From Candidatus Scalindua sp. (GTDB lineage: Bacteria; Planctomycetota; Brocadiia; Brocadiales; Scalinduaceae): a stretch of DNA of 32,000 nucleotides. The stretch is taken from positions 89,720 to 121,719 of the forward strand of contig JAIQZU010000039.1 in NCBI GenBank assembly GCA_021776915.1, given 5' to 3'. Below the pieces are notes generated by a model. That model was not told where the DNA came from, searched no databases, and was given only the letters and a program-made list of their open reading frames with translations. Shown here piece after piece: positions 1,148 to 27,710 of the stretch. Both the position numbers and the translations under genes were made by a program. Position 1 is the stretch's first letter. Each line of letters opens with the position of its first letter.

Positions 1148-1648
1148 TTATTTCTTTAAATGACCATCAAGTGCTGCGTCAATTTGACTAAGAACAATTT
1201 TGCGTACAAGACAAACTTTTTCTTTTGATATTATTTTTCTAGAGGTGCTTTTGCAACTAAAGCACAAATATGAATCTTTTAATTCTAGCATTTCGTGTTG
1301 ATGTTTAAGGCATAAAGGAGTTGGATTTATTTCACGTGTCATTTTATCAATTTTCCATAGTAAACCTTCTTCTTCAATAAAAACATAATCTTTTAGATTG
1401 GAAATGCTATATGCAAGATTATTTTTTGTTTTGGCACAAAACCATACATACAGTACCAGAACCAAGACGATGGCTACCCATAGTGGGGTTGGTGATTGGA
1501 GTGTATTTATTAGTCCAATCCATAAGCTTTGGAAAAAAAGATAAACGCTGCCACTACCAACAATTAACGAAGCAAGTATTATTGCAATTATTGCATTATG
1601 AGAATCGGAAAAAAACTTTTTAATGTATGCTAACAATAAGTTTTTCAT
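1148..1648 (-). CDS. hypothetical membrane protein with C-terminal Cys/His cluster
   Basis: Two predicted TM helices (IIAIILASLIVGSGSVYLFF, LWVAIVLVLVLYVWF). The C-terminal CLKHQH...CFSC looks zinc-ribbon-like. The track start at 1651 is TTG, and the adjacent ATG at 1648 is preferred. No clear SD. Confidence 0.5.
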   Translation of the reverse strand: MKNLLLAYIKKFFSDSHNAIIAIILASLIVGSGSVYLFFQSLWIGLINTLQSPTPLWVAIVLVLVLYVWFCAKTKNNLAYSISNLKDYVFIEEEGLLWKIDKMTREINPTPLCLKHQHEMLELKDSYLCFSCKSTSRKIISKEKVCLVRKIVLSQIDAALDGHLKK

Positions 1649-1802
1649 CAATGGTTTATATGGCGGTTACTATGCTTAACTATTTTAACAATTAATATTA
1701 TTACGGTATTTATAACAGCACAATAAGTGGAAAACTTGTCAGCTTATTAAAACTTATCTGTCAACTACCCTGTGAATCCGCTTTGAATGAGCTTCCGGTT
1801 TT

Positions 1803-1888
1803 TGCGGTATAGAGTGGACATTGAAGCAGCATCCTTCGCGGGTATAAAGTGGACACAGTAGTTTTCCCCTGACATGAAAGTGTCCACT
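1803..1888. promoter_or_regulatory. array of AGTGGACA motifs (two direct about 18-bp repeats plus one inverted copy forming a 9-bp inverted repeat)
   Basis: GCGGTATAGAGTGGACA (1804-1820) and GCGGGTATAAAGTGGACA (1838-1855) are direct repeats. AGTGGACAC (1848-1856) and GTGTCCACT (1880-1888) form a perfect inverted repeat. A partial AAGTGGA lies at 1725-1731. Confidence 0.3.
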
Positions 1889-2028
1889 GAATTTGACAAT
1901 TCGCCATCCATGCTTTTACGCATATTTGATCGCCTCACGAATATGTTTGTTCGGATGACCGGACAAGCATTATCCATTCTTCCTTGCGTTGACATAGAGT
2001 TGGTATAGAACGGGCGTGTACACTCTGC

Positions 2029-3495
2029 TTAACTTACTGCAACACCTTTTTCTGACGGTACGGTTACGGCACTGCTCTTGTACCAGTCCTGGTAATAATC
2101 TCCTGAATCGTATAATTTATGCAGATTTTCCAGTACCTGCTCAAATACCTGTATCCAGTCAGAACCAACCCTGAAGCCGAACATGGCGTTGCGCTTGCCG
2201 TGGGTTGTACTGCCAATAGTTTGAAGTGATTTCCTGAATCTCATTCTAAGGTTGTCACCGGCATAAAGATGGTCGTACATATATTGCATACCGTCAATGA
2301 AATTCTCCAGGGACATATCAACAAGTCTGTGAACCACATGCGCAGTATCATAATACTTCCAGTCTTCAGGATAATTCTTACGGAATATCCTCTTTTCAGA
2401 ATCCAGCCTGTGGTAAAGAGCAGTCTTAGGAAACGGGCAATTGATGCCAAAGGTAAGAACGTCAATATTATTTTCCAGTACAAACTCTGTCATTCTTTTG
2501 AACGAATCTTTGTCATCACCGTCTGCTCCCAGGACTATTGATCCCCAGACAACAAGGCCATGATCATGGATTTTTTGAACGCAGTCATAATAGTTGTCAG
2601 CTCCAAGCCTTAAATTTGTCGTTTTATTCATCTTCTCCAGAACAGCCTCATTTGTCGATTCTATTCCGCAAAGAAATCCAAAATTTCCACTCTTTGCCAT
2701 CAGGTCAAGTACCTCTGCATCCTTTGATATATTGAGCGCGGTAAATCCAAGCCAGTCTTTTTTAATGCCCCTTTCTATCATACCACGAAAGAGGGCTTTT
2801 GCCCTGTTGGCAGAGTTTTTACTATGTCCATAGAAATTATCTTCCGCAAACATCAGGCCCTTGTAGTCTGTTGCTTCCATCTCGTCCAGGACGTCTTCGT
2901 ATGGCCTCTCTCTGTATTTCTTTCCCTGAAAGGTTGGTACGCTGCAGAAATCGCAGTAATTTGGACAACCTTTCGTTGTGACAATAGAGGAAAACTTGTA
3001 ATCATATTTCTTTTTCAGGAGTTCCCTATTGGGAAAGACATGCTTCATCTCTGACAGGCCTGGAAGCCCGCCTTCGTACTTCTTTTTGAGTTCGCCATTT
3101 TCAAAATCTTTAATGACTTGCGGCCACAATGTTTCGGCCTCTCCGATAAAAATTGCATCTACATATTTTGAAGCTTCTTCAGGCACTACTGATGCATGTA
3201 TACCACCCATGACTACGGTCATACCTTTTTTCCTGCAGGCTTCGGCTATCTTGTAAGCTCTTGACACTTGGTATGTAACAGAAGTAATACAAACCATATC
3301 CACAGGCTCAAATGTAATTTCTCCGTTATCATCAAGGGCCAGTTCTATATTTTCATCGATTACGTCAAACTCCCAGTCACCCGGCGTAAGGGCTGCTATG
3401 TATGCCAGGTTTAAAGGCATTTGAACTATGACAGATATACTCTCCTCACCATGTCGCCCCGGTGGATGTGGATTGATAAGCATCATTTTTCTCAT
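2029..3495 (-). CDS. B12-binding (class B) radical SAM enzyme
   Basis: The N-terminal Rossmann-like cobalamin-binding region (VCITSVTYQVSRAYKIAEACRKKGMTVVMGGIHAS) is followed by the radical SAM cluster motif C177-PNY-C181-DF-C184. A strong SD (GGAGGAGG) is present. The ATG overlaps the upstream stop as ATGA. Confidence 0.9.
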   Translation of the reverse strand: MRKMMLINPHPPGRHGEESISVIVQMPLNLAYIAALTPGDWEFDVIDENIELALDDNGEITFEPVDMVCITSVTYQVSRAYKIAEACRKKGMTVVMGGIHASVVPEEASKYVDAIFIGEAETLWPQVIKDFENGELKKKYEGGLPGLSEMKHVFPNRELLKKKYDYKFSSIVTTKGCPNYCDFCSVPTFQGKKYRERPYEDVLDEMEATDYKGLMFAEDNFYGHSKNSANRAKALFRGMIERGIKKDWLGFTALNISKDAEVLDLMAKSGNFGFLCGIESTNEAVLEKMNKTTNLRLGADNYYDCVQKIHDHGLVVWGSIVLGADGDDKDSFKRMTEFVLENNIDVLTFGINCPFPKTALYHRLDSEKRIFRKNYPEDWKYYDTAHVVHRLVDMSLENFIDGMQYMYDHLYAGDNLRMRFRKSLQTIGSTTHGKRNAMFGFRVGSDWIQVFEQVLENLHKLYDSGDYYQDWYKSSAVTVPSEKGVAVS

Positions 3496-4952
3496 TTTTC
3501 CTCCTCCTGATTATTTAAAATCATATTTGCTGCCTTCCAGCCGGATGAGACAACAGCACATATCCCAGGCCCCGGATTAGTCCAGTGTCCTGCAAGAAAA
3601 AGATTTTTGAAGGGCGTCGTATGCTGAAGTCTGTTTGACCATGTCTGGTCAACGGTAACAGCCCAGCCATAAGCAGCGCCTTTTGAATTATGCGTATAAC
3701 GATATAGAGTCTTTGGCGTAGCGGCATCAATCACTTCTATATGGTCCTGAATGTCAGGTGTAAAATTCTCAAGGTAGCTTATTGTGTGTTCTTTCATTTT
3801 ATTCTTAAAGGATGCCCAATCTTCTACATCGTCATAACTTTCTCTTAATGAGACAACAATAGAAATTATTTGTTTTTTATCAGGCGCCAGACTTGAATCT
3901 ATATCAGTTGGAACGGATATATAAAACCAACCATTATTGGAAAAGCTTATGTCATTAGATGTGTGATAGAAACCCCTTTTCAGGCCTTTTAAGTCGACCT
4001 TACTATCAAGACCAAGGTATAACAAGAAGAATGATACACTCTCTTTCATGCTCTCGATCTTGCGAAGGTAGGAATCGTCAGCAACGTCTCCTTCCATCAA
4101 ACAGAAAAATGTTTGTCGGGGGTCAATGTTTGACACAAAAAAATCTGCATCAATTTTTTTCCCCTTTTCCGTTGCAACTCCTTTTGCAATGCCATCCTCT
4201 GTGAGCAGGCTCTTTACTTTTGAAGATAGCATAATGTGGCCGCCATAGTCAATAAATTTCTGAGTGATTGCATCGGTAAAATTCTGGGTTCCACCAACAG
4301 GGAAATAAGCCCCGTCCTTCAGATAATTTACCAGCATCTGACACATACCAATGGCCGAAACTTCGTGAGGTGGTGAACCAATATACCCCCACTGTGCAGA
4401 CAGTACCATCTTAAGCTGCTCATCGGTAAAGAAATTATCCAGCATTTCCTTATATGTAAGGTTTTGATACTTGATAACCATCTTATGTCTTTCAGCGCTG
4501 AAAGTGACTCTGTACAATCCTATGAACTCTTTAAAGAATAACGATATGTTTTCGTTTTCAGATGGAAAACGTTCCTTCAGCAGATCAATATAATCGTCAA
4601 TTTCTGCAGGTATATCTATGGAAAATGAAGGGAAATTTATGCTGTCCATAGGATCAAGCCGCAAAAAATTAATTTTTATATCAAGTTCCTTAAGGCACCT
4701 GCCAACTACACTCCATTTACCACACCCACCAATGTGGTGGACAGCCGCATCAAAAATAAAACCTTTTCTCTTGAAAGAAGTACAATAACCTCCGGGTATG
4801 CTATGCTGCTCTATAATCAGCACTTTCTTCCCACTCTTTGCCAGGAAGGTTCCGCAGATTAAACCGGCAATTCCGGCTCCCAGTATGATTATATCGTACT
4901 TAGATTTTATTTCGGATTTATCAATGGAAAAGTTATGCATGGAAACAAACAC
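3492..4952 (-). CDS. FAD-dependent oxidoreductase, phytoene desaturase (CrtI)/amine-oxidase-like
   Basis: Dinucleotide-binding DIIILGAGIAGLICGTFLAKSGKKVLIIEQHSIPGG (GxGxxG...E) at the N-terminus. Length and the C-terminal LFLAGHWTNPGPG motif are typical of the CrtI family. The track start at 4952 is GTG; an alternative ATG lies at 4940. Confidence 0.85.
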   Translation of the reverse strand: MFVSMHNFSIDKSEIKSKYDIIILGAGIAGLICGTFLAKSGKKVLIIEQHSIPGGYCTSFKRKGFIFDAAVHHIGGCGKWSVVGRCLKELDIKINFLRLDPMDSINFPSFSIDIPAEIDDYIDLLKERFPSENENISLFFKEFIGLYRVTFSAERHKMVIKYQNLTYKEMLDNFFTDEQLKMVLSAQWGYIGSPPHEVSAIGMCQMLVNYLKDGAYFPVGGTQNFTDAITQKFIDYGGHIMLSSKVKSLLTEDGIAKGVATEKGKKIDADFFVSNIDPRQTFFCLMEGDVADDSYLRKIESMKESVSFFLLYLGLDSKVDLKGLKRGFYHTSNDISFSNNGWFYISVPTDIDSSLAPDKKQIISIVVSLRESYDDVEDWASFKNKMKEHTISYLENFTPDIQDHIEVIDAATPKTLYRYTHNSKGAAYGWAVTVDQTWSNRLQHTTPFKNLFLAGHWTNPGPGICAVVSSGWKAANMILNNQEEEK

Positions 4953-4959
4953 TATGAAG

Positions 4960-6195
4960 TTATGAATATTTTGAGATGATTATGGATGAAATGTTGCCAG
5001 TATCAGAAAAGGAGTTTACAAGTACGTTTTTGACTTCTGATTCCCTGCTATTGTCAGGTACACAATCCAGATTGCACTCTTCATCTTTTTCCTGATAGTT
5101 TATTGTCGGGGGAATGATACCATTATTAATTGCTAATACACCGGCAACACATTGTATGACCCCCGATGCATCAAGGCATTCTCCTGTCATTGACTTTATG
5201 GCGCTCACAGGAACCTTCTCAGCATGATCACCAAAATAATCTTTAATAATTCCTGCCTCCATTTTATCACCGGTCACACTGGAATTCGCACATGCAGATA
5301 TATAAGAAATGTCCTCACCGCTAAGACCGGCATCTTTCATTGCCAGAGAAATACATCTTACACCCTGTGACGTATCAATATTTTCATGTGAAATCTTATC
5401 TGGATTAAACGTACTCCCGTACCCTTTTATTTCAGCATAGATATTCGCATTTCTTTCCAGTGCGTCTTCAAGCCTCTCTATCATCAGCAATGCAGACGCC
5501 TCACCAATTATAAACCCATTGCGTCTTTTATCAAATGGCGCAGAGATCTCAATACCACCATTCCTGCTCCCTGATAATACTCCTGACCTGTAAGCACCCC
5601 AGAATATATCAGCAGTCAACCCATGAGCCCCGCCGGCCAATACTGCCTTTCCTCTGCCCAATCTTAAAAAGTCAGAAGCGTAAATAATAGCATCCAGCCC
5701 ACTGGCCACTCCTGTAGATATAGTGGAATTCAAACCGGTCGCTTTACAGAAAATAGAGGCTCTGCTTGCAGGTGCATTCAGGACGGTATTTGGAAAATCC
5801 ATGGGATTAACAAAGGTAGGTCCCTCCTGTAATCCTTCCAGGTCAAATGAACTGATACTGCCTATACTGCCATAGGTTGAACCTATTACAATTCCCAGTT
5901 CTTCCTCACTGTAAATTTCGTGGGTAACTTTAGCGTCATCCATTACCAGCTTTGCAGCCGAAGATACCAATAAAGATGTCCTGTCTATGTGGCGTATACC
6001 TTTTTTACCTAAATACTCCTTTGCATCAAAATCTGATATTTCACCTGCTTTCTTACTTTTATATTTAGAGACATCAAACAGCGTAATATCTTTTATTCCG
6101 GAAACACCGTTTGTCAGATTATTCCAGAACGCATCCTTATTTACACCGATTGGTGACAATATACTTATTCCAGTTATAACCAGACGGCTATTCAT
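4960..6195 (-). CDS. beta-ketoacyl synthase-like protein lacking the catalytic triad (chain-length-factor-like partner)
   Basis: Thiolase-fold KAS-II-like over its full length. At the positions aligning to the neighbouring KS residues C163/H296/H333 it has V163 (STGVASG), C302 (SACANSS) and E339 (KSMTGEC). Confidence 0.85.
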   Translation of the reverse strand: MNSRLVITGISILSPIGVNKDAFWNNLTNGVSGIKDITLFDVSKYKSKKAGEISDFDAKEYLGKKGIRHIDRTSLLVSSAAKLVMDDAKVTHEIYSEEELGIVIGSTYGSIGSISSFDLEGLQEGPTFVNPMDFPNTVLNAPASRASIFCKATGLNSTISTGVASGLDAIIYASDFLRLGRGKAVLAGGAHGLTADIFWGAYRSGVLSGSRNGGIEISAPFDKRRNGFIIGEASALLMIERLEDALERNANIYAEIKGYGSTFNPDKISHENIDTSQGVRCISLAMKDAGLSGEDISYISACANSSVTGDKMEAGIIKDYFGDHAEKVPVSAIKSMTGECLDASGVIQCVAGVLAINNGIIPPTINYQEKDEECNLDCVPDNSRESEVKNVLVNSFSDTGNISSIIISKYS

Positions 6196-6202
6196 AATAT
6201 TT

Positions 6203-7423
6203 CTAACCCGTAAACTTTTTTAATATAAGACTGCTGTTATTACCGCCAAAGGCGTACGCGTTATTCATGGCAATATCGACCTGCATTTCACGTTTTACAT
6301 TTGGAACAAAATCCAAGTCACACTCAGGGTCTTTAGTTTCATAGTTTATAGTTGGTGGAACTACGCTTTCCTTTATGGCCAACGCACATGCAATCGCTTC
6401 TATAGCGCTTGCGGCTCCCATTGTGTGTCCAATCATTGATTTTATGGAGCTTATTGCCAGCTTTTTCGCATGTTCACCAAAAACCCTCTTTATAGATATC
6501 GTCTCAGCCTTATCGTTAGCAACTGTGCCCGTACCATGCGCACTCACATATTGCACATCTTCCGGTTTAATCCTGGCACTTTTCAAGGCTTTTTTCATTG
6601 CCGATGTAACACCATTTCCCTCCGGATGCGGAATTGTTATATGGTAACCATCGCAGCTCAGGCCGTATCCCAGGATTTCAGCATATATATTTGCGTTCCT
6701 CGCCAGTGCACCTTCCAGGGATTCCAGTAACAGCATTCCGGCGCCTTCACCAACTAACAACCCCTTTCTATCTTTGTCAAAAGGCTGGCAAATCTCAGGA
6801 GCAATAGCGTTAAGCCTGCTGAAACCAACAAAAGCTACCTTAGAAAACGGATCAGAGCCTCCGGCCAGCATTACATCAGCCCTTCCCAGCTTTATCAGGT
6901 CACATGCATAGCCAATAGCGTAGTTTCCTGCAGCACATGCAGTAGGGATTATTGTACTTGGTCCCTTAAGGCCAAATTCAATAGATATATTAGACGGCAT
7001 ATTAACACACGGATGCCTTTGAAACAGGACAGGGTCTACGCTCTCTTCTCCCTTTTCAAATCTTATATAATTTACCTTTTCGAGGATTTGAATCTCACCT
7101 GCGGTTGTTCCAATCGAAACTCCGGTTCTTTCAGGATCAATATTATCTAAACCAACCTTAGAGTCATCGATGGCAAGTTTTGCGGCCGCTATGGCAAACT
7201 GAGAACCTTTACCGATTTCCCGATCTGATCCACTACTTATATAATCACTGTAATTGAAATCTTTAACGAAACAGCCTCTATGTACCTTGAAGACGGATGT
7301 GTCAAATGCCGTGATCTCAGATACACCGGATGTGCCGGAAATTAATGCATCCCAGAACACATCATTCTTATTCCCTATAGGAGAAATTACACCCACACCG
7401 GTAATTACAATTCTTTTGTCCAT
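6203..7423 (-). CDS. fabF: beta-ketoacyl-ACP synthase II family enzyme (catalytically complete)
   Basis: Active-site Cys in IPTAC163AAGNYAIG. His residues in SAH296[11 protein letters not shown] and KSMIGH333[19 protein letters not shown]-terminus. Confidence 0.9.
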
Positions 7424-7451
7424 GGTTGCTTTGTGAAAACTATTATTGTGT

Positions 7452-7901
7452 TCAGCCTGTCAATGACTCTTTATCGGCAACACCAAAGCTCAATGTAGCT
7501 TTTGCGACAACCTTCTCTCCCACTTTAGCTACACCCTTAACTATTGCCGCGCTCGAAATAATCTTCTCAGTATTAATTTCTAAAATAAGTTGGTCGCCGG
7601 GGAAAACCGGCTTTGAGAAACGGACGTTCGCTGATGCCAGCAAAAAAACTTTGTCCTTATCCTTCTCAGTATCAAAGCTCTTTTTAAAAAGTATGATCGC
7701 GGCTTGTGCCAGGGCTTCTATAATTAAAACGCCCGGCATTATGGCAAAATCAGGGAAGTGACCGGCGAAGAAAGGCTCATTGCCAGAAATGTTCTTTAAA
7801 CAAACAATTCTGTTTTCTTTTTGAAACTCAATAACTTTGTCAATAAATAAGAACGGATATTTTTGCGGAACCAACTCTCTTACTTCCTCAAAGCTTAACA
7901 T
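7452..7901 (-). CDS. fabZ: 3-hydroxyacyl-ACP dehydratase, FabZ-like hot-dog fold
   Basis: [14 protein letters not shown]48[14 protein letters not shown]62ALAQ (catalytic His/Glu signature). 149 aa. Confidence 0.9.
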
Positions 7902-7985
7902 TTATAACAACCTTTCGTCTTAATTGTTATAGCCTGACCGCTTCCACGATTTATGGGACAGGCATCTATGAAGAAGTATTATACA

Positions 7986-8249
7986 CTATTTTTTCTCATT
8001 TTCTTCAAGGGTAGACCTTGTCATTTCAATTGTGGCATTCAGTGACGTAATGTCTACAAGTTTCTCTTCCGGAATTTGAACCTTAAATTTCTTTTCTATA
8101 AGAGCAAGAATTTCCAGTGCCAACAAGGAATCTATCTCCAAATCCTTAAAAAAATCAGCATCTCTTTTCTCCCATATTTCATCCTCATCCAGCTCCGTTA
8201 CCTCTGCTACAATTGCAGTAATATCTTTTTCTAAGTTCTCTATAGACAA
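7986..8249 (-). CDS. acyl carrier protein (dedicated, operon-leading)
   Basis: 87 aa, acidic, with the phosphopantetheine attachment motif LEIDS41LLALEI. Start codon is TTG at 8249, 7 nt downstream of AAGGAGG. Confidence 0.9.
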   Translation of the reverse strand: MSIENLEKDITAIVAEVTELDEDEIWEKRDADFFKDLEIDSLLALEILALIEKKFKVQIPEEKLVDITSLNATIEMTRSTLEENEKK

Positions 8250-8294
8250 TATCTTACCTCCTTAAGAAAGCATATAGAAATCTAAACATATGTA

Positions 8295-8323
8295 AAAATA
8301 TCAAACTTATATTAATATGTCAA
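8295..8323 (-). promoter_or_regulatory. candidate sigma70-type promoter of the ACP operon (TTGACA-17-TATTTT)
   Basis: On the minus strand, TTGACA is the revcomp of 8318-8323, followed by a 17-nt spacer and TATTTT (revcomp of 8295-8300), about 45 nt upstream of the ACP start. Sequence match only. Confidence 0.3.
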
Positions 8324-8670
8324 TAACAATATTCAAGGTGTATGATCACAATTTTAAGGAAGTTTATTTCTGGTACATAATCTGTATATATTAAAGGCTT
8401 CTCAGTAATTATTAAAAAACATAGCTTCTAAATACAGGGCAATTCAAACTGTTTTAGCGCTAATGTCAAATGATTCTTTTTCCTTTCGTGTACGGACGAA
8501 CGAAAAAGGTACTAACCAGATCAGCGACCAGCTTTAGTAATTCCAGCTAAGATTATGGTTTTTCGTATTATGTTTATCAAATTCTTCCATCTCCACCAAA
8601 ATTTTTATCCTGAAAGTAATACAATCATGTAAAAGTATCCACAAAGTAAAAGCCTGTAAATATTACAAAA

Positions 8671-8716
8671 TCTTGTTATTTAGATTCAAGACGCCCATTT
8701 AATCTAAATAACAAGA
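8671..8716. repeat. perfect 16-bp inverted repeat with 14-nt spacer (TCTTGTTATTTAGATT / AATCTAAATAACAAGA)
   Basis: Read directly: arms at 8671-8686 and 8701-8716. It ends 19 bp upstream of the parA -35 box. On the minus strand the hairpin is followed by TTTTGTAATATTT. Confidence 0.8.
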
Positions 8717-8734
8717 ATATTTACATAAATATGC

Positions 8735-8762
8735 TTGACATCTACATTTTGTATGTTACTAT
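8735..8762 (+). promoter_or_regulatory. candidate sigma70-type promoter for parA-like gene (TTGACA-16-TACTAT)
   Basis: TTGACA at 8735-8740 and TACTAT at 8757-8762. AAGAGGA SD lies before the ATG at 8814. Confidence 0.45.
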
Positions 8763-8813
8763 TCTAGCTGTTATATATCTGTCACATCTAATCCATACCA
8801 TTAAGAGGACAGA

Positions 8814-9638
8814 ATGCGCAGTATTGCGTTCATAAATCAAAAGGGCGGAGTAGGAAAAACAACCTCGACTGCAAACGTTGGGGCATGCCTGGCTACGCTT
8901 GGCAAAAAGGTGCTGATGATTGATCTCGATCCTCAAGGCAACATGAGTATGCACCTTGGTGTCGACGTCCATGGAAAAGATTCCTCTATTTACCAACTAA
9001 TAACCGGCAAGAAGGAAGCTACTGAAATATTAACAAAAACAGCAATAAGCGGTCTGGACATAATCCCTTCTGATATCGATCTTGCGAGTGCAGAGATAGA
9101 ACTTGTTAACACAGTAGGGCGTGAAACTATCGTCAAATTTTATCTCGACAAATTGTTAAATAAATATGATTATGTTTTAATTGATTGCCCACCCTCTTTA
9201 GGACTTCTCACACTGAATGCACTCACTGTAGCCAACGAAATATTCGTTCCTTTACAAACTGAGTTTTTCGCCTTACAGGGTGTAAGCAAATTATTACAAA
9301 CATTCGATGTTATAAAGAAGAGGCTGAATAGTTCTTTAGAAATTACAGGAATAATACCCTGTATGTACGATAGCAGAACAAAATTAGGAATTGCAGTGCT
9401 TGACAAGATCAAGGAATACTTTGAGGACAAGGTATTTACCAGCATAATCAGAAAGAATATTAAGCTTTCTGAAGCACCAAGTCATGGCATGCCAATTATA
9501 ACATATGCTCCGGATTCTAATGGAGCACAAGATTATATGGCTTTAACTAAGGAAGTAATTGCTCAAGAGAAGAATATGCTTAAAGGGGTAAAAGCAAAAA
9601 AGCAGAAAACAGAGATTAGAGAGCATGCTTTTCTGTAA
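8814..9638 (+). CDS. parA: ParA/Soj-family (deviant Walker A) ATPase, orphan with no parB
   Basis: IAFINQK10GGVGKTT deviant Walker A, LMIDLDPQGN, VLIDCPPSLG. Lys-rich C-terminal tail. Confidence 0.9.
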   Translation: MRSIAFINQKGGVGKTTSTANVGACLATLGKKVLMIDLDPQGNMSMHLGVDVHGKDSSIYQLITGKKEATEILTKTAISGLDIIPSDIDLASAEIELVNTVGRETIVKFYLDKLLNKYDYVLIDCPPSLGLLTLNALTVANEIFVPLQTEFFALQGVSKLLQTFDVIKKRLNSSLEITGIIPCMYDSRTKLGIAVLDKIKEYFEDKVFTSIIRKNIKLSEAPSHGMPIITYAPDSNGAQDYMALTKEVIAQEKNMLKGVKAKKQKTEIREHAFL

Positions 9639-9735
9639 TACAACTCAAGATTCTTAATTAAACTGAGCCTAACCTTATTTGTCACTTTTTAGATTATAAA
9701 ATCTCGGTAACGCTCACTCTTTAAAGGGAGGTTTT

Positions 9736-10233
9736 ATGCGAAAGAAAAATGTACTTGGGACGGATCCCCTTAGCTGGCTGAAAGGAAAGAATAAACAGGA
9801 AAGTCAGATAGAAAATCCATCAGAGCTAAATAATGATAATGAATCAAATATCGAAAGTGAAATACAGGAAGAAATTGCTTATGAACCAGACAGCATAACA
9901 AAGTCGTATCAAGACGATGAATTAAACTTAAAGAATGAAACACTGGAAGATAGAACCTATGAACCCAGTGACGTAACAGAGGCGTATCGAAGGTCTATTC
10001 TGGGAGAGAAGGCATATGGTTTTCATGTTAAGAAGCCGCACGAAACAACACAAAAAGAGAGTCCCGCAACTGCCTTTGTGATTGTTTACACTATATTATT
10101 GTTGATTCTTGGTTTCATAGTCTATAGAGACCTGACAAAACAAATTGACAATCTGAACACAAAACTGGCAAGTATAGAAAAACAGGTTGACTCCGGCTTT
10201 ATAAACTATGAAGAGACAAATGATGTATGGTAA
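9736..10233 (+). CDS. hypothetical ParA-adjacent protein: basic N-terminal peptide, acidic repeat region, one TM helix, C-terminal coiled-coil-like tail
   Basis: GGGAGG SD. N-terminus MRKKNVLGTDPLSWLKGKNK. Duplicated YEPDSITKSY / YEPSDVTEAY. TM helix ATAFVIVYTILLLILGFIVY. No ParB HTH or CTPase motifs. Confidence 0.6.
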   Translation: MRKKNVLGTDPLSWLKGKNKQESQIENPSELNNDNESNIESEIQEEIAYEPDSITKSYQDDELNLKNETLEDRTYEPSDVTEAYRRSILGEKAYGFHVKKPHETTQKESPATAFVIVYTILLLILGFIVYRDLTKQIDNLNTKLASIEKQVDSGFINYEETNDVW

Positions 10234-10472
10234 TTCTTAAACAATCAGTTGCAGATATGTTTATTGCGCACCATGACTCTCTATAGTAGAGTTTCCCATA
10301 TTCAATATTTACTCCCCACTATAAGAAAAACCACCAAAGAGCTTTCCTGTATATTCTTTTTGTACACAAATTCTTTTTTTTGTTTAGTCACTAAACAGAC
10401 AATCTGGTTTCCTGGATTTCCTGGGATGAACCCTACTGAGGAGTTTCGGGGTGTCTATCTATTAAACAACAC

Positions 10473-11498
10473 TCATTTATGAGGCTCAATAATCACTTTT
10501 ACTGATTCTTTGGCGTCAGTAACGAGTTTAAAACCACGTTCAGTCTCTGCCAATCCTAAACGATGAGTAATCATATCTTGTACCGGCACACGATTAGAAC
10601 TAATCAGTCTTATCGCCACATCTATATCAATAGGGCTGGCGCCGTATGTGGGCATTAAGGTTATACAATCACGCCAGAAATCATTGAACGGAACAGGGAG
10701 TTCAACATCAGGGCCTCCGGGAGCAAAGAACAGGACAGTACCTCCACGGCCAACAGATTTAAGCGCTGTTTTTAAGGCAGGAACGGCTCCCGTAGTAGCA
10801 ATCACACGATCAGCAAGCCTGTTACCATTTAACTTGAGCAGATGCGAAGGAAGATCATCATGAGCAGATATAACAGAGTCGGCGCCAAGCTTTCCTGCCA
10901 TGTCCATGCGATATTCACTTATGTCCGTCGCAATTATCTTTCCCGCTCCTGATGCTCGAGCAAGTAATATGTGGAGAAGGCCGGAAATTCCACTGCCAAT
11001 AACTACTACAGTCTGGCCGGGCTCTATGCGTGCTAATCTCTGCCCGCGAACCACACAGGCCAGTGGTTCGATTAATGTCCCGTCTTCCAGCGACATATTA
11101 TCAGGAAGTATAAATACTCCCCTGTCTACATTGATCTCCGGTACCCGTACATATTCAGCAAAGCCACCGGGATCAAAATTCGTGCTACGCAATGTATCAC
11201 AAACAGTATGGTTGCCATTTAAGCAATAATGACAGGTGTTGCATGGCACATGATGAGAAACGAATACCCTGTCACCTTTTTTGAATCGATTGACACCTTC
11301 TCCAATTTCTACGATTTCACCGGTAGCCTCATGACCAAGTACAAGCGGCGCCTTGTGAATACGATACCACTCCATTACATCACTGCCGCAGATGCCGCAG
11401 GCCAGCGATTTCAATAATACCTCACCAGCGCCAACCTGTGGAGTCGGCATTTCCTCCACCCTTATGTCATGATTGTTGTAATACATTGCTACGCGCAT
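10473..11498 (-). CDS. zinc-dependent alcohol/polyol dehydrogenase (MDR superfamily)
   Basis: GICGSDV, GHEATGEIVEIGEGV, structural zinc loop CNTCHYCLNGNHTVC, NAD-binding VIGSGISGL. Confidence 0.85.
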   Translation of the reverse strand: MRVAMYYNNHDIRVEEMPTPQVGAGEVLLKSLACGICGSDVMEWYRIHKAPLVLGHEATGEIVEIGEGVNRFKKGDRVFVSHHVPCNTCHYCLNGNHTVCDTLRSTNFDPGGFAEYVRVPEINVDRGVFILPDNMSLEDGTLIEPLACVVRGQRLARIEPGQTVVVIGSGISGLLHILLARASGAGKIIATDISEYRMDMAGKLGADSVISAHDDLPSHLLKLNGNRLADRVIATTGAVPALKTALKSVGRGGTVLFFAPGGPDVELPVPFNDFWRDCITLMPTYGASPIDIDVAIRLISSNRVPVQDMITHRLGLAETERGFKLVTDAKESVKVIIEPHK

Positions 11499-11506
11499 TT
11501 TCTAAG

Positions 11507-12295
11507 TTACCCGTTCTTTGTGCCATTGAATATATCGTTGGCCTCATTGGCAGTTGCATTCTTATGGATAATGGCATGCAGTGCCTTGGCCATGGCAACC
11601 GGATGCTCATGCTGCCAGATATTCCTACCAAGATTTAACCCTATAGCCCCCTTCTGCATACCATCATGAACAAATTCAAATACAGGCAATTCTGTATCAA
11701 ACTTCGGCCCACCTGCTATAACTACGGGCACAGGGCAACCCTCAGTAACCTTATCAAAATCTTCACACCAGTATGTTTTTACCACCTTGGCGCCTATTTC
11801 TGCAGCGATACGGCAGCACAATCCCAGATACTTGGCGTCCCGTTTCTCCAGCTCCTTACCAACGGCTGTAACCGCCATTACGGGAATTCCGTATTCTTCA
11901 CATTCATCCACTAGTTTTCCAAGATTCAACAATGTCTGTCTCTCATAATCGCTGCCAATAAAGACAGATATGCCCACCCCTGCAACATTGAGACGAACAG
12001 CATCTTTTATAGCAGTAGTAAGCCCTTCATTTGCAAGGTCTCCTCCAACTATACTGGTGCCACCTGATACCCTGAGAATGATGGGTTTGCTGCCAACCGG
12101 GTCTATGGCGGCACGCAAAACCCCCCTTGTACAAAAAAGTGCATCACAATACTCAATAATCGGCTTAATGGTCTCGCCCGGTTTCTCAAGTTTGCTTGTA
12201 GGTCCCAGGAAATATCCATGGTCTATCGGCATAAACATGCATTTGCCATCAGTCCCCATCAGCGATGACAACCTGTTTTTCATTCCCCAATCCAT
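11507..12295 (-). CDS. class I aldolase of the DhnA / LsrF / ADH-synthase (AroA') family
   Basis: MFMPIDHGYFLGP, GAKVVKTYW (Schiff-base Lys context), GLNLGRNIWQ. GGAGGTG SD. The stop lies 8 bp before the ADH start. Confidence 0.8.
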   Translation of the reverse strand: MDWGMKNRLSSLMGTDGKCMFMPIDHGYFLGPTSKLEKPGETIKPIIEYCDALFCTRGVLRAAIDPVGSKPIILRVSGGTSIVGGDLANEGLTTAIKDAVRLNVAGVGISVFIGSDYERQTLLNLGKLVDECEEYGIPVMAVTAVGKELEKRDAKYLGLCCRIAAEIGAKVVKTYWCEDFDKVTEGCPVPVVIAGGPKFDTELPVFEFVHDGMQKGAIGLNLGRNIWQHEHPVAMAKALHAIIHKNATANEANDIFNGTKNG

Positions 12296-12365
12296 TTCTT
12301 ACACCTCCTCTGTTTAACTGTTATATCGTTTAATTCTTCAGAACAGTCCAAAATCCTATCACATT

Positions 12366-12584
12366 TCAAGCAGGTTCGTCAGGCATGATTATTAAATAAC
12401 CTTTATTTATTAACCAGTGATGAAATTCATAAGTTGTATGAATGCATTCATTTTTACATATTGCCCTTATTCTTTCGTATTCTTCTGAACCATCCTCCTG
12501 AGCATCAAGATCAAGCTGCACCGGACACTTAATATCCTTGCAATATTCCCTGCGTTTATAATCAATATACCCTTCGATTGACAT
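12366..12584 (-). CDS. hypothetical small Cys-rich protein (72 aa)
   Basis: CKDIKC...CKNEC (CX4C...CX3C). Same strand as the aldolase and 70 bp upstream of it. Confidence 0.45.
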   Translation of the reverse strand: MSIEGYIDYKRREYCKDIKCPVQLDLDAQEDGSEEYERIRAICKNECIHTTYEFHHWLINKGYLIIMPDEPA

Positions 12585-12936
12585 CAGCTTTTCCCCATTT
12601 ATCAGATAATGAAATATAACAAAAATGTTGTATTGAGCAGTATTTACTTTAATGAAGGTTTCACCACAAATATCACCTGCCCCATTACAATTGGAGGAAT
12701 CATAAAAGATTCAATTTATTATGTCAACGGAAAATGGCAATATGAAATAAAAGGCTTAAAGTTTCCCTGCTTCAGGGTATAAATTTTGCTCTATCATAGA
12801 ATCATATTCTGCTATTTAACCTGAATTTATTATCTTATAAAGATACTTATATGTATTAAGACTACACTTATTCTCTTACAATAACAACATAACATCACAA
12901 TCTAATTATACTTAACTCAATTACGGAGGATTTAAA

Positions 12937-13458
12937 ATGAGTCGCTTATTATTCAAAAGAACATTATTATTGGCTTTGTTAAACATTGCAATAGTGATTG
13001 CTTTTGCAACATTTGTGCAAAAAAATGTTCTGGCTGGGAAAAATGTGCATTCATTTTATCTGCCCAGCATTCTCAAGGAAGGTACTGACGTACAGCCCAG
13101 GGAAATTTTATTCATCGCAAAATATCCGGGTGATATTGAGGTTGACGCTTCGTGGGAACCCGGTGAAAGAGAACTAACCATAACAATATATGATCAGGAT
13201 GGAAAGCCCCTTGTAAGCAAAAAAGCCGAGAGCCCTGTTCATCTTGTTTACACATATACTCAAGAGCATTTTAAAAAAACCAGATTACTTGGTAATTCCT
13301 TCGGGGTTGAGATTTCACAATCTCCTTTTAAGACTATAAACGGAAGTGTAAAAATCATTACACCCGATAAAAAAGTAATAGAAGAGGATGATTCAATCAA
13401 CATTCGCGGCCCGTACGGAACCTTCATCGAAGGAGAAAAAGAAGATTCAGAGAACTGA
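12937..13458 (+). CDS. hypothetical secreted protein
   Basis: Signal-like N-terminus LLLALLNIAIVIAFATFVQKNVLA. GGAGG SD 8 nt upstream of the ATG. Confidence 0.6.
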   Translation: MSRLLFKRTLLLALLNIAIVIAFATFVQKNVLAGKNVHSFYLPSILKEGTDVQPREILFIAKYPGDIEVDASWEPGERELTITIYDQDGKPLVSKKAESPVHLVYTYTQEHFKKTRLLGNSFGVEISQSPFKTINGSVKIITPDKKVIEEDDSINIRGPYGTFIEGEKEDSEN

Positions 13459-13498
13459 ATCTCCAGGAATCCGCCAGTCTCTCCTTGCTCTTGTAGTA

Positions 13499-13568
13499 CA
13501 CAAGCTCCACCCTTTTTTTGTTCCCAAGCTCAACCATTTCCTCGTTCCCAAGCTCCAGCCTGGGAACG
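13499..13568. repeat. REP-like palindromic element cluster (GTTCCCAAGCTC x2, CAAGCTC x3, hairpin CGTTCCCA-n10-TGGGAACG) between convergent genes
   Basis: GTTCCCAAGCTC at 13520-13531 and 13544-13555. CAAGCTCCA at 13501-13509 and 13549-13557. Inverted repeat 13543-13550 / 13561-13568. It generates the spurious LGNE/PKLQPGN ORFs in the track. Confidence 0.6.
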
Positions 13569-13578
13569 CTAATTATAC

Positions 13579-14493
13579 TTAGCTCCTGGCAACAAACTCT
13601 TCCTGACTGACCGAACGAAAAAATCTGCTCCTTTCTTTCCTGCCTTTCGGCGGCAGACCTTGAGGAACCGGACACTGTCTTAAGGCTTCGTCACATTGAC
13701 CGCACACCGGAAAAGGCATAGAGTTTTTCAAGGCCCTCCTTTTCATTTCGGCTATAACAGAAACATCATCATTTGCCAGATTCCCGATTCGTGTAGCGCC
13801 GGTCAGGTCATGGCAGCATGCCAGCGCCTCCCCTTCCCATGTTACAAAGGTATGGAACTGAAAAAGGCTGCATATTCCGGATTCAAGTCCAATGGATCGA
13901 GGTGCATATATTTCCTGCAATCTTAGATTTCCACCCCGTCCGTGACATACTGTCATACTGGAGCCTACACCTCGCTCCTTCCAGAAACTGACATATTCTT
14001 CCTGTTCTCCACTATTGATATCAGTAATTATACCAGTAACCCTCAAGCCCACATTTCCCCTGGCAATATCTATTAATTCAAGAGTCCTCTTTAATGCGTC
14101 CTCATAAGACACATTTGGGCATAACTTCTCAAAGACACTTTTTCGCAGGCTTGGAAAAGAAAGTGTAATGGAATTGGGACTGGACTCGACAAGCCTTTGA
14201 GAAATATTTCTATTTAATGATGCAGGGTTTATCACGATCCCCACATCACCATCTTTCCTGCGGATGTCGTAAATCCATTCAAAAACCTTCTGGTGTGATA
14301 GAGGATCACCCATGCCAGAGAATGTAATAAGGCTTCCTTCACTGACAAGTTTATCCGTGACTGCCTTGAATACGTTTTCAGACATAAAACCCTCAGGCCT
14401 TGTTATAGCTTCGCGTGGACACATGAGGCAACCGGTACTGCACCGGTTGGTGAGCTCCATGTCTATGGATACAAACGCCCAGTCAGACGGCAT
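13579..14493 (-). CDS. radical SAM protein with C-terminal Cys-rich SPASM/twitch-like extension
   Basis: C18-STG-C22-LM-C25 (TNRCSTGCLMCPRE), FSGMGDPL. C-terminal ACCHD...GNL and CGQCDEALRQC. Start chosen at ATG 14493 behind GGAAGGAG; the longer track ORF (to 14673) overlaps the upstream gene by 190 bp. Confidence 0.8.
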   Translation of the reverse strand: MPSDWAFVSIDMELTNRCSTGCLMCPREAITRPEGFMSENVFKAVTDKLVSEGSLITFSGMGDPLSHQKVFEWIYDIRRKDGDVGIVINPASLNRNISQRLVESSPNSITLSFPSLRKSVFEKLCPNVSYEDALKRTLELIDIARGNVGLRVTGIITDINSGEQEEYVSFWKERGVGSSMTVCHGRGGNLRLQEIYAPRSIGLESGICSLFQFHTFVTWEGEALACCHDLTGATRIGNLANDDVSVIAEMKRRALKNSMPFPVCGQCDEALRQCPVPQGLPPKGRKERSRFFRSVSQEEFVARS

Positions 14494-15586
14494 CCTGCTT
14501 CTCCTTCCTGACTGCCTCCAGCCATGCAGTGCCAAAGCGTTTATCCGGTTCCAGATAATGGCCTTCACTCCACTCGTTCCATGACGCAATGAAGGAGAGT
14601 TGAGGTTTGTTGAATTTTCTTGTGTAGCTGATTGCACGGCCAAGAAAATCTGAAAAGAGTGCGGGGTCTTCATTTACAACAACAGGCCACCAGGGATAAC
14701 GCTCCTGTTTGTGGTATCCGTTTACGGCAGCCCGCGGTGTGGCGTCCCATCCTGGTGACACCGATGGAAAGTAAGCAAGCCCGGACTTATCAGCAAAACC
14801 TTCCCACTCTCTGCTTCGCTTTTTGACCAGTTTACCATAGTCCTGCTGGTATTCACCCTTCCAGTCAGGAAGCCAGACGTAGTGGCTTATGCTGTCAAAT
14901 CCAGACCTCTTGAACTCAGCAATCATAGAAGGCGCCGGATTGATGGCCATAAGATGAAGGCCGGGATATCCTCTCTTAATAAGATAGTCCTTAGCTTTGT
15001 AGATTGCCAGTGACGCCAGACTCGGCCCCAACTGCCGAAGGAAGAAGGTGCTGTCAAAGATAGAGAACAGGGGCATGCCATCTATGCGCAGGTAATTTGA
15101 TCTTGAAAAGTACCTTTCCTCAAGAAATCTTATCAACTCCACAAAATCATCAGGGTCGGTGTATACAAGCCTGCCTGGACCAATATCAGGGGCGGGTCGG
15201 TGTTTTACCGGAAGGACTCCACGGGGCATACGGTTTGCCCACATGAGAGAGAAAGGAAAATCATCGCCGCCATCTTTGCCTAGAAATCCATTATCAAGGG
15301 CCGCATCGAAAACACGTTTTCCCCGTGACCAGAAAAACCCGTACACAAAGAAATCCACACCGTATTCTCTGGCAAGCCCTACCTGTTTCTGTGCGGTAGA
15401 AGGAACTGAATCATCGTACGTCCCACCAACAGGGAGGCGTGGTTGATTATGACCTGGAAAACGGGACGGAGCATTCAAAACAAGGTCCCACTCACTCCAA
15501 CCCGGCTGAAAGTTACTGTCCCGTTCAACACAGGCATGCCAGCCCGGATAAACATATGCGCCAATCTTTGCATTCTCATTTGACAT
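14483..15586 (-). CDS. glycoside hydrolase family 99-like / WbsX-family glycan-processing protein
   Basis: Pattern GWSEW..V..AP.RFPGHNQPRLP...YDD, AREYGVDFFVY..FWS.GKR, DFPFSLMWAN, typical of the WbsX (GH99-like) family as recalled. The stop overlaps the radical SAM start by 11 bp. Confidence 0.75.
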   Translation of the reverse strand: MSNENAKIGAYVYPGWHACVERDSNFQPGWSEWDLVLNAPSRFPGHNQPRLPVGGTYDDSVPSTAQKQVGLAREYGVDFFVYGFFWSRGKRVFDAALDNGFLGKDGGDDFPFSLMWANRMPRGVLPVKHRPAPDIGPGRLVYTDPDDFVELIRFLEERYFSRSNYLRIDGMPLFSIFDSTFFLRQLGPSLASLAIYKAKDYLIKRGYPGLHLMAINPAPSMIAEFKRSGFDSISHYVWLPDWKGEYQQDYGKLVKKRSREWEGFADKSGLAYFPSVSPGWDATPRAAVNGYHKQERYPWWPVVVNEDPALFSDFLGRAISYTRKFNKPQLSFIASWNEWSEGHYLEPDKRFGTAWLEAVRKEKQDAV

Positions 15587-15715
15587 TTAATAATCAATTT
15601 TCTTTTTTATAAAAATTTAGTAAAACATCATGTGTTGGATGGTGAGATATTCATGGTAAAAGAAAGGAACAAGAACAAATTTGTCATTTTAAAAGATTTG
15701 AACTCCTGCCTCTAT

Positions 15716-17260: not shown

Positions 17261-17325
17261 CTTCTATAACCTGAAAAATGTTGATGGCCACTGAAATAGA
17301 TTATACCATCTATATCTCGTTGTAT

Positions 17326-17583
17326 CTAATCATCCGCTGATTCAAAAAAGGTTTTCCCTTGCCTGATAAAAGCCTGAAATAATGAATATGTAGTTTTGAT
17401 TTCACGTTTATTTTTAATGCCATTTGAGCGTATAAAGTCATATCCAACTTCCTCAATTTTGGAGAGATAGTGAAGAGATGAAAATATTTCGTCATTAAGG
17501 GGACGATTTGTGTGTAAAGGAATTTTCGGGGACTGACTAAGATTCAAATCCATAAAGCCTGTCATTTTTCGATAATTTGCCAT
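17326..17583 (-). CDS. small hypothetical ORF (85 aa), possibly a truncated gene fragment
   Basis: Lies between the RM gene and the DUF4365-like gene on the same strand. The C-terminal YSLFQAFIRQGKTFFESA resembles the N-terminal helix of YaaC/Abi-like proteins (weak recollection). No SD seen. Confidence 0.3.
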   Translation of the reverse strand: MANYRKMTGFMDLNLSQSPKIPLHTNRPLNDEIFSSLHYLSKIEEVGYDFIRSNGIKNKREIKTTYSLFQAFIRQGKTFFESADD

Positions 17584-17688
17584 AAGTATGAATTATATTT
17601 TTTAGAGTATAACGCTTTGCATAACTTACCCGAAATTGAAATGCAAATTAAACTTGGTTACATTTCAACAGACAGAAATTTGGGTAGT

Positions 17689-20874: not shown

Positions 20875-20950
20875 TATATTTCATTTTTACAAAATATTTT
20901 TTATTTCTTCTAAGTAAATTACGCCAAAATCGGGGACGTGTTTACACATC

Positions 20951-21715: not shown

Positions 21716-21870
21716 ATCGTGCCTAGTAGATTACAAGTTATTATAAAGTTCTGAATAACATCACTATAGTAACGTTATTCTATAGAAATATTGTTATGTT
21801 AGTATTATAAAGACAGCGATTAAGTATTTGAATTATAGAGTGCTATTTCACGTCATACTCAATGCAATAG

Positions 21871-27620: not shown

Positions 27621-27710
27621 ATATGCAGCAACCCCCTGGAAATCAACAAAACTATGCGGCCAACTTACGGAGAATTGCATAACACTCAGTTAATAGACTG
27701 TGCCTACTAT

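Follow-up and report, generated by a model that had tools for sequence, protein, structure and literature searches.

A catalytic ketosynthase and a triad-less partner in the presumed ladderane lipid operon of a Scalindua-related anammox genome

Few natural products are as unusual as the ladderane lipids, whose biosynthesis is still an unsolved problem. In the chain-length factors (CLF) of aromatic polyketide synthases (PKS), Gln replaces the active-site Cys of the ketosynthase (KS). Two paired systems are used here for comparison, the actinorhodin KS/CLF (PDB 1TQY) and the ishigamide pair Iga11/Iga12 (PDB 6KXD).

In anammox bacteria, a KS homologue with a mutated triad was already listed in Table 2 of Rattray et al. 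(2009), who suggested that a protein of this type couples a short fatty acyl chain with a ladderane unit made separately. Granatino et al. (bioRxiv, May 2026; 10.64898/2026.05.19.726425) described the intact neighbor and this protein, KustE3605/KustE3606, as 'amxFabFhet'. The orthologues from K. stuttgartiensis and B. fulgida co-purified as a heterodimer, amxFabF2 and amxFabFmut were each inactive alone and active only as a pair, and the heterodimer decarboxylated malonyl-ACP to acetyl-ACP and formed acetoacetyl-ACP (10.64898/2026.05.19.726425). Crystal structures were obtained of the heterodimer and of an ACP-crosslinked complex, in which the ACP contacts the two subunits over about 250 and 300 square angstroms. 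Phe135, Thr138 and Val139 of the dead B. fulgida subunit line the acyl tunnel, and the dead-subunit mutants V139G and F135G/V139G had an altered preference for C6, C8 and C16 probes, as measured in a non-physiological bromoacyl crosslinking assay on which the chain-length preference rests. Such probes, which point to short C6-C8 chains, are the only substrate data, and in vitro the heterodimer did not elongate hexanoyl-ACP (10.64898/2026.05.19.726425). The dead subunit of S. brodae can crystallise as a homodimer with its helix-loop-helix disordered. According to the same authors this is the first chain-length-factor-like subunit in a fatty-acid-type pathway, and an experimental link to ladderane formation has so far been made for none of the proteins of the anammox gene cluster concerned, Cluster I.

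In this paper we examine a stretch of 32,000 nucleotides (the window) in which an intact KS (KS1) is followed by a triad-less homologue (KS2). An earlier, sequence-only reading of the window had proposed that the two act together. This interpretation is largely right and is not new, as the loss of the triad was published in 2009 and the structure in 2026. The anammox and ladderane context, and the 2009 publication, had been missed.

Operon layout and host

All six genes of the operon lie on the minus strand and run from 8249 down to 2029 in the order ACP, FabZ, KS1, KS2, CrtI-like oxidoreductase and B12 radical SAM enzyme. The first encodes an orthologue of amxACP, the anammox-specific acyl carrier protein (7986..8249, 87 aa; Pfam PP-binding), whose phosphopantetheine attachment site is Ser41 (codon 8127-8129, checked); it is near-identical to PDB 7QV0 chain D (148 bits) and also matches 7AUF and 9S5I chain E. 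The amxFabZ orthologue, a 3-hydroxyacyl-ACP dehydratase of 149 aa (7452..7901), scores 155.9 bits on NCBIfam fabZ and is near-identical to PDB 8AYI/7QV0 (271-276 bits); a short-chain preference has been ascribed to amxFabZ (PMC10139942). KS1, the catalytic ketosynthase and amxFabF2 orthologue, occupies 6203..7423 (406 aa; Pfam and NCBIfam), and KS2, the amxFabFmut orthologue, occupies 4960..6195 (411 aa; ORF and alignment). Between them lies a spacer of 7 nt, AAATATT (6196..6202, minus strand), which reads directly as TAG, aaatatt, ATG, and translational coupling of KS1 and KS2 across it is likely.

Downstream are a CrtI/phytoene-desaturase-family FAD oxidoreductase equivalent to KustE3607 (3492..4952; 486 aa from the listed GTG start), with a Pfam Amino_oxidase domain and 162.6 bits on NCBIfam crtI_fam, under the cutoff of that model, and a B12-binding radical SAM enzyme of 488 aa equivalent to KustE3608 (2029..3495; Pfam B12-binding and Radical_SAM). 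The two genes overlap by 4 nt. The best NCBIfam match of the radical SAM enzyme is rSAM_ladder_B12, its score of 87 bits lying well below the cutoff of 360.

This gene order, including the KS1-KS2 arrangement and the position of the oxidoreductase, is kept in approximately 40 anammox loci, and the operon is the anammox "Cluster I", the presumed ladderane lipid cluster, in a Scalindua-related genome. Over window positions 2028-15614 the DNA is syntenic with deposited contigs of Candidatus Scalindua metagenome-assembled genomes (MAGs) at 82-87% nucleotide identity, and in this the host differs from that of the B. fulgida amxFabFhet. Scans of 1600-8900 for promoters and terminators found sites no more commonly than in shuffled sequence.

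KS1 and KS2 compared with FabF and the anammox heterodimer

Two adjacent thiolase-fold proteins of 406 and 411 aa, 7 bp apart and alignable along their length, had been noted beforehand, and the ORFs, the 7-nt gap and a BLASTP comparison (38% identity over 412 columns, E = 1e-90) bear this out. Both proteins have the N and C domains of ketoacyl-synt. Active-site positions were assigned by MAFFT alignment to E. coli FabF from NC_000913.3, and the triad codon coordinates were verified (all on the minus strand). FabF Cys163/His303/His340 correspond to Cys163 (6935-6937), His296 (6536-6538) and His333 (6425-6427) of KS1.

Like the FabF proteins of E. coli and B. subtilis (PDB 4LS5), KS1 has the thiolase fold, the triad, the Lys (Lys328), the gate Phe (Phe392) and the pantetheine-binding Thr residues (Thr298, Thr300), and it shares 41% identity with E. 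coli FabF. It scores 472.0 bits on the NCBIfam fabF equivalog TIGR03150, just under the cutoff of 493.75, and passes the broader subfamily model NF005589 (457.3 vs 387). Conservation of KS1 is at its maximum in the region of the active-site Cys, and its tunnel residues (Ala108, Ile111, Ala162, Phe201 and Met335) are identical to those of B. fulgida.

The sequence-only reading held that every catalytic residue is replaced in the downstream protein, and proposed alignment to FabF as a check. In that alignment the Cys/His/His columns of KS2 hold Val163 (5707-5709), Cys302 (5290-5292) and Glu339 (5179-5181), and the contrasting motifs of KS1 and KS2 are all present (TACAAG vs TGVASG, AHGTGT vs ACANSS, GHTMG vs GECLD). 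In E. coli FabF numbering, KS2 further has Asp398 at the position of the gating Phe400 and Asn304 at that of the pantetheine-binding Thr305; it keeps Lys335/Asp311/Glu314 as Lys334/Asp310/Glu313. On TIGR03150 (cutoff 493.75) it scores 342.8 bits. Loss of the triad is general, as all 33 full-length anammox KS2 orthologues aligned have Val or Thr for Cys, Cys or Asn for the first His and always Glu for the second, and none has Gln at the Cys position.

By sequence similarity, KS1 and KS2 are clearly orthologous to the respective chains of PDB 9S5H/9S5I, Brocadia fulgida amxFabF2/amxFabFmut. KS1 matches 9S5H chain B at 671 bits and 72% identity and KS2 matches chain C at 588 bits and 66% identity; matches to the opposite chain are far weaker (256 and 248 bits). 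The locus shares with amxFabFhet its orthologous proteins, the six-gene operon, the pattern of triad loss, the tunnel residues of both subunits and the dedicated ACP with Ser41. The two differ in detail. At the first His position the window KS2 has Cys, as in Scalindua, whereas Brocadia and Kuenenia have Asn; at the gate position it has Asp, and amxFabFmut of the known system has Arg; at the Cys position it has Val, where Thr is found in S. brodae and in many marine Scalindua.

The pair as a probable obligate heterodimer

We consider it highly probable that KS1 and KS2 together make up an obligate heterodimeric ketosynthase, 'amxFabFhet', in which KS2 is non-catalytic and shapes the tunnel. 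A KS/CLF-like heterodimer with a tunnel-shaping dead partner is what the sequence-only reading had put forward, and it agrees with the data on the orthologues (10.64898/2026.05.19.726425), to which KS1 and KS2 are related at 72% and 66% identity. On this orthology we infer that the window proteins would behave like the crystallised ones. KS1 would carry the sole Cys-His-His active site of the pair, and KS2, a folded and selected but non-catalytic paralogue, would replace the second monomer of a FabF dimer. Unlike homodimeric FabF, therefore, the enzyme would be an obligate heterodimer with one active site and not two, its orthologue being inactive as a single protein, and KS1 activity would require KS2. 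Of 36 two-KS fusion proteins among the closest global relatives of KS2, 35 join an intact N-terminal KS to a triad-less C-terminal KS, which hints, by Rosetta-stone reasoning, that pairs of this kind function as a single unit.

The helix-loop-helix of KS2 with Phe134, Thr137 and Val138 would form part of the wall of the KS1 acyl tunnel. These residues, and the local sequence around them, are identical to B. fulgida Phe135/Thr138/Val139, and they lie in residues 129-150 (VNPMDFPNTVLNAPASRASIFC; 5746..5811, minus strand), a tunnel and interface stretch that is one of the two most conserved in KS2 among 35 anammox sequences. By contributing to the tunnel wall, residues of KS2 would influence the chain lengths that the tunnel admits, and chain-length control may be the physiological role of KS2. 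KS2 would also provide roughly half of the surface on which the cluster's own ACP docks. An electrostatic asymmetry has been proposed to enforce heterodimerisation; it is not reproduced by a raw count of charged residues, which is not equivalent to structure-based surface potentials and gives net charges of -2 (KS1) and -4 (KS2) for the helix-loop-helix and of +2 (KS1) and 0 (KS2) for the 196-206 helix.

The pair would convert malonyl-amxACP to acetyl-amxACP by decarboxylation and then condense to acetoacetyl-amxACP, and would thus be self-priming, with decarboxylative priming presumably at the active subunit. Priming by decarboxylation had been judged unlikely beforehand; this is true of the dead subunit, in which Gln and both active-site His are missing, and does not hold for the heterodimer, which decarboxylates malonyl-ACP (10.64898/2026.05.19.726425). 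With amxFabZ the pair would probably elongate short (about C6-C8) acyl-amxACPs in this presumed ladderane operon, and its product may feed ladderane synthesis. A polyunsaturated or unusual acyl-ACP, as suggested in the sequence-only reading, would be a conjectural substrate.

One alternative is that KS2 works on its own, catalysing a new reaction other than a Claisen condensation, and that KS1 is an independent, ordinary FabF. A different substrate and function were indeed proposed by Rattray et al. (2009), and several features could be read in this way: Lys334, Asp310 and Glu313 are kept and Glu339 is invariant, the signature X-small-Asn-Lys-Glu is common to a large dead-KS family and might reflect a conserved pocket, and the dead subunit's own tunnel held PEG in the crystal (10.64898/2026.05.19.726425). 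KS2, however, lacks both His residues as well as a nucleophile in place of the Cys; its orthologue alone was inactive and did not crosslink to probes, the KS1 orthologue alone was inactive too, and in electrostatic docking the ACP is not predicted to bind where the dead tunnel opens (10.64898/2026.05.19.726425). Granatino et al. regard the 2009 proposal as refuted by their data, and we find a stand-alone KS2 improbable.

We give as little credence to KS2 being a classical type II PKS chain-length factor (KS-beta) that is itself the priming malonyl-ACP decarboxylase. Adjacent, probably translationally coupled genes with one triad-less partner would fit such a factor, as would the decarboxylation of malonyl-ACP by the orthologous heterodimer (10.64898/2026.05.19.726425). 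Like the actinorhodin KS/CLF and Iga11/Iga12, the window has an active KS encoded alongside an inactive paralogue, and here too the inactive partner would line part of the acyl tunnel where the two subunits meet. Iga11 is the closest structural homologue of the KS1 orthologue (10.64898/2026.05.19.726425), and KS1 matches it at 351 bits. Unlike the aromatic-PKS chain-length factors, KS2 has Val163 and not Gln, as had been pointed out in the sequence-only reading and is confirmed by alignment; Gln is found in no anammox orthologue, and both of the His residues that drive decarboxylation are absent. Nor does KS2 appear nearest to chain-length factors, to judge indirectly from the ranking of its PDB matches and from structure: besides 9S5H_C its top PDB matches are FabFs (B. 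subtilis, 288 bits), and B. subtilis FabF is the closest structural homologue of the dead subunit (10.64898/2026.05.19.726425). The active actinorhodin KS is matched at only 175 bits and active PKS KS chains at 175-188 bits, and among the 60 PDB matches listed for KS2 none is named as a chain-length factor, the names being those of ketoacyl synthases, FabF or FabB. Finally, unlike in type II PKS, the KS pair lies in a fatty-acid-type operon with FabZ and ACP. As to the aryl-polyene pair ApeO/ApeC, the surroundings of KS1 and KS2, with a CrtI-like oxidoreductase and a B12 radical SAM enzyme, are those of anammox Cluster I.

KS2 is under purifying selection, with a dN/dS of about 0.1 (0.09-0.11 against Scalindua orthologues, compared with 0.06-0.07 for KS1 and 0.03-0.05 for the B12 radical SAM enzyme, which is the most conserved protein of the cluster and 78-97% identical across anammox loci). 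In all complete anammox loci examined its ORF is uninterrupted and of full length, and residues 62-79 (LGKKGIRHIDRTSLLVSS; 5959..6012, minus strand, coordinates checked) form a second near-invariant stretch in the conservation analysis. That KS2 is a decaying, functionless relic of a FabF duplication, as the loss of all three catalytic residues and its somewhat faster evolution (63-67% identity between Scalindua and Brocadia/Kuenenia, vs 72-74% for KS1) might suggest, is effectively refuted by this purifying selection, by the intact ORFs and the two near-invariant stretches, and by the requirement of KS1 orthologues for it (10.64898/2026.05.19.726425).

With KS1 and KS2 taken as the obligate heterodimer, the value of the window is mainly one of annotation, in that a 'FabF' pair from an anammox genome related to Scalindua is better labelled as the amxFabF2/amxFabFmut heterodimer. 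Biochemical and structural data exist for few parts of the candidate cluster, and the pair of KS and dead KS is among them.

Sister cassettes outside anammox

A homologous-protein search with KS2 returned anammox orthologues only (best 90% identity). Distribution outside anammox was surveyed with a 50%-representative protein search and a metagenome scan, and a sister cassette with a KS and a dead KS was found in MAGs labelled as non-anammox (Omnitrophota, Thermodesulfovibrionia and Planctomycetia; loci L039-L042) and in dozens of taxonomically unassigned metagenome contigs (L082-L127). One KS is triad-less in 38/38 of these cassettes, and the partner KS is intact in 32/32. The sister dead KS is 43-50% identical to KS2, keeps the Lys and Glu and has Phe, Tyr, Leu or Ile at the Cys position; the intact KS is 52-55% identical to KS1. 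In a neighbor-joining tree with Kimura distances the dead-KS clade was monophyletic in 100/100 bootstraps.

As in Cluster I, the dead KS of the sister cassettes lies beside an intact KS, an ACP, FabZ and a CrtI-like oxidoreductase. Unlike in Cluster I, the dead KS comes first, and the cassette is extended by FabG and, in many cases, by a third KS, which is intact. The B12 radical SAM enzyme is absent from about 10 long loci, and a distantly related one is present in a single locus (L116).

The cassette is thus perhaps not unique to ladderane producers. If the sister cassettes are functionally equivalent to Cluster I, the heterodimer would make a common precursor, and the ladderane-specific chemistry would reside in the B12 radical SAM enzyme, possibly with a contribution from the oxidoreductase; we offer this tentatively, as a possibility that we think has less than an even chance. 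If true, it would provide a comparative handle on the ladderane pathway, which has no genetic system, and the sister cassette, mostly without the B12 radical SAM enzyme, may help to separate generic from ladderane-specific steps. The anammox paralogue pair Kuste2804/Kuste2805 possibly belongs with the sister cassettes.

Catalytic positions of the ketosynthase pair

Two ketosynthase homologues, each with beta-ketoacyl synthase N- and C-terminal domains, are encoded on the minus strand of the window: the catalytic KS1 (406 aa, 6203-7423) and the triad-less KS2 (411 aa, 4960-6195). The KS1 TAG stop is followed by seven nucleotides, AAATATT, and then by the KS2 ATG, and the two proteins align end to end with 38% identity (E = 1e-90). 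To place the triad, E. coli FabF (from NC_000913.3) was aligned with KS1, KS2 and about 110 homologues. In this alignment, with codons verified, KS1 Cys163/His296/His333 correspond to E. coli FabF Cys163/His303/His340, and KS2 has Val163/Cys302/Glu339 at the triad positions. The sequence-only reading had described two ORFs of this size and position, 7 bp apart and alignable along their length, with the catalytic motifs replaced in the downstream one; all of this was confirmed, including every motif quoted, and alignment against FabF leaves the triad intact in KS1. KS2 further aligns Asp398 with the gating position (E. coli Phe400) and Asn304 with the pantetheine-binding position (E. coli Thr305), and retains Lys334 and the Asp/Glu pair.

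Residue 163 of KS2 (codon 5707-5709), at the catalytic Cys position, is variable within Scalindua. Val occupies it in the window, in groundwater MAGs and in S. rubra and S. sediminis; S. arabica and further Scalindua loci, most of them marine, have Thr. The recent preprint on this pair (10.64898/2026.05.19.726425) mentions Thr here for S. brodae only.

Neither KS1 nor KS2 reaches the cutoff of the NCBIfam fabF equivalog model. Among the 60 PDB matches listed for KS2, the nearest by sequence, its orthologue 9S5H_C aside, are FabFs (B. subtilis, 288 bits); PKS ketosynthases score 175-188 bits and no match is named a chain-length factor. KS2 would work much as a type II PKS chain-length factor does, but it carries Val where aromatic-PKS chain-length factors have Gln, and it is likely to be of independent origin, from a FabF-like ancestor.

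A probable obligate heterodimer, known from orthologues

The pair is already known. In a table of Rattray et al. 2009 (PMC2649909) the Kuenenia protein Kuste3606 appears as Val163/Asn298/.../Glu333, with the suggestion that its function differs, and Javidpour et al. 2016 entered it as a 'non-canonical FabF'. A preprint by Granatino et al. (bioRxiv 10.64898/2026.05.19.726425, 21 May 2026) deals directly with this protein pair, there named amxFabF2 and amxFabFmut. Each protein alone had no activity; when co-expressed they co-purified as a heterodimer, which decarboxylated malonyl-amxACP and formed acetoacetyl-amxACP. The Brocadia fulgida heterodimer structure has a single functional tunnel, walled in part by dead-subunit Phe135/Thr138/Val139, and both subunits contact the ACP. 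In bromoacyl crosslinking C8 and C6 probes were preferred over C16, and mutations of the dead-subunit tunnel residues altered this preference. The authors claim the first chain-length factor in a fatty acid pathway. Their results section puts amxFabFmut 'just upstream' of amxFabF2; the opposite order, with the active gene first and the dead gene after it, is seen in the window and about 40 anammox loci, and the Kuenenia locus tags (3605 for the active gene, 3606 for the dead one) agree with it.

In a PDB search KS1 matched 9S5H chain B (671 bits) and KS2 matched 9S5H chain C (588 bits); 9S5I is a further entry of the same pair with an ACP chain added. KS2 Phe134/Thr137/Val138 are the same as the tunnel residues named in the B. 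fulgida structure, as are KS1 Ala108/Ile111/Ala162/Phe201/Met335 and the gate Phe392. KS2 is under purifying selection, slightly more relaxed than KS1 (dN/dS 0.09-0.11 and 0.06-0.07, respectively). Across 35 anammox sequences, KS2 conservation peaks at residues 62-79 and at residues 129-150, where the tunnel residues lie, and the KS1 peaks include the active-site Cys region; such a shift would be expected for a structural partner. A raw count of charges on KS1 and KS2 did not reproduce the electrostatic asymmetry proposed for the heterodimer.

The best-supported explanation is that KS1 and KS2 form an obligate heterodimer. KS1 would carry out the chemistry, and KS2 would supply the second half of the dimer, wall the acyl tunnel and aid docking of the dedicated ACP; the complex would prime itself by malonyl-ACP decarboxylation and probably acts on short chains. 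The earlier proposal of a heterodimer with a tunnel-shaping dead partner is therefore supported. Its view that decarboxylase priming is unlikely holds for the dead subunit, which has no Gln, but not for the heterodimer, as decarboxylative priming was measured in orthologues. The feature is thus real, correctly read and of biological interest, but not new: structure and biochemistry exist for orthologues, and the window adds one more.

Cluster I and related cassettes

The remaining operon genes are also on the minus strand. The ACP (7986-8249) and FabZ (7452-7901) are near-identical to the anammox-specific amxACP and amxFabZ structures (8AYI and 7QV0), and a CrtI-family FAD oxidoreductase is encoded at 3492-4952. 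The B12-binding radical SAM enzyme (2029-3495) has the NCBIfam 'ladderane' lipid radical SAM model as its best match, at 87 bits, far under the cutoff of 360. It is the most conserved of the cluster proteins (dN/dS 0.03-0.05), with 78-82% identity between Scalindua and Brocadia/Kuenenia, compared with 60-67% for KS2 and the oxidoreductase. With one genome scanned per species, the six-gene order was also found in about 40 anammox loci of Scalindua, Brocadia, Kuenenia and relatives, the top KS2 match (91% identity) being in a groundwater Brocadiaceae/Scalindua-like MAG. Window 2028-15614 is syntenic with Scalindua MAG contigs at 82-87% nucleotide identity. Because of this gene order, synteny and identity, we assign the operon to 'Cluster I' (KustE3603-3608), the presumed ladderane lipid cluster, in a Scalindua-related anammox genome; its link to ladderanes is likewise presumed.

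In a search of representatives at 50% identity, the relatives nearest to KS2 worldwide were mostly triad-less ketosynthase homologues. They include 36 proteins of about 800 aa with two KS domains each (e.g. P0121, P0126, P0128), 35 of which have an intact N-terminal KS (Cys-His-His) and a triad-less C-terminal KS; in these, an active ketosynthase is naturally fused to a dead one.

A sister pair occurs in four loci (L039-L042) from MAGs labelled non-anammox (two Omnitrophica, one Planctomycetia, one Thermodesulfovibrionia), with 43-50% identity to KS2 for the dead KS and 52-55% to KS1 for the intact one. In a neighbor-joining tree the dead-KS clade including these loci received 100/100 bootstraps and the KS1 clade 97/100. 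The L040 cassette (9980-17994) reads dead KS-FabG-ACP-FabZ-KS-CrtI-like-third KS-two flavodoxin-like proteins, and no gene for a B12 radical SAM enzyme lies within 21 kb. The sister cassette in general has this order up to the CrtI-like gene; its third KS is intact and is not in every locus. A metagenome scan gave about 46 further sister-type loci on contigs of unassigned taxonomy (L082-L127), where the triad is lost in 38/38 dead KSs (typically Phe/Tyr, small residue, Asn, Lys, Glu/Asp) and intact in 32/32 partners. The B12 radical SAM gene is absent from about 10 long sister-cassette loci. Only L116 has one (9989-11293), between the ACP and CrtI-like genes and distantly related to that of the window, at only 30% identity; this locus might be of the anammox kuste2802-2805 cluster type. 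Kuste2805, the second dead paralogue of Rattray et al. (Phe/Asn/Asn/.../Lys/Glu; PMC2649909), resembles the sister dead-KS family and may belong to it.

Other features of the window

A ParA/Soj-like ATPase (8814-9638, plus strand) is divergent from the ACP gene, and 10473-12295 (minus strand) holds genes for a zinc alcohol dehydrogenase and an aldolase of the DeoC/LacD family; Scalindua MAGs show synteny for all three. At 13579-15586 (minus strand) a radical SAM/SPASM ORF (13579-14673) and a WbsX-family glycosyltransferase ORF (14483-15586) overlap by about 190 nt, and the downstream gene, that for the radical SAM/SPASM protein, probably has a miscalled start codon. Scalindua synteny was seen up to about 15.6 kb, as far as the compared flanks reached. 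GC content is low at 16000-23000 (0.34-0.35, against 0.40-0.47 nearby), and this stretch may be an acquired island. An ORF within it, 17689-20874 (minus strand), encodes 1061 aa in which an N6 DNA methylase domain is combined with a Type ISP specificity domain at the C-terminus; the protein resembles restriction-modification enzymes of Type ISP/IIG. Another minus-strand ORF, 25593-27680, codes for 695 aa that include a HAMP domain and a catalytic domain of the adenylate/guanylate cyclase type.
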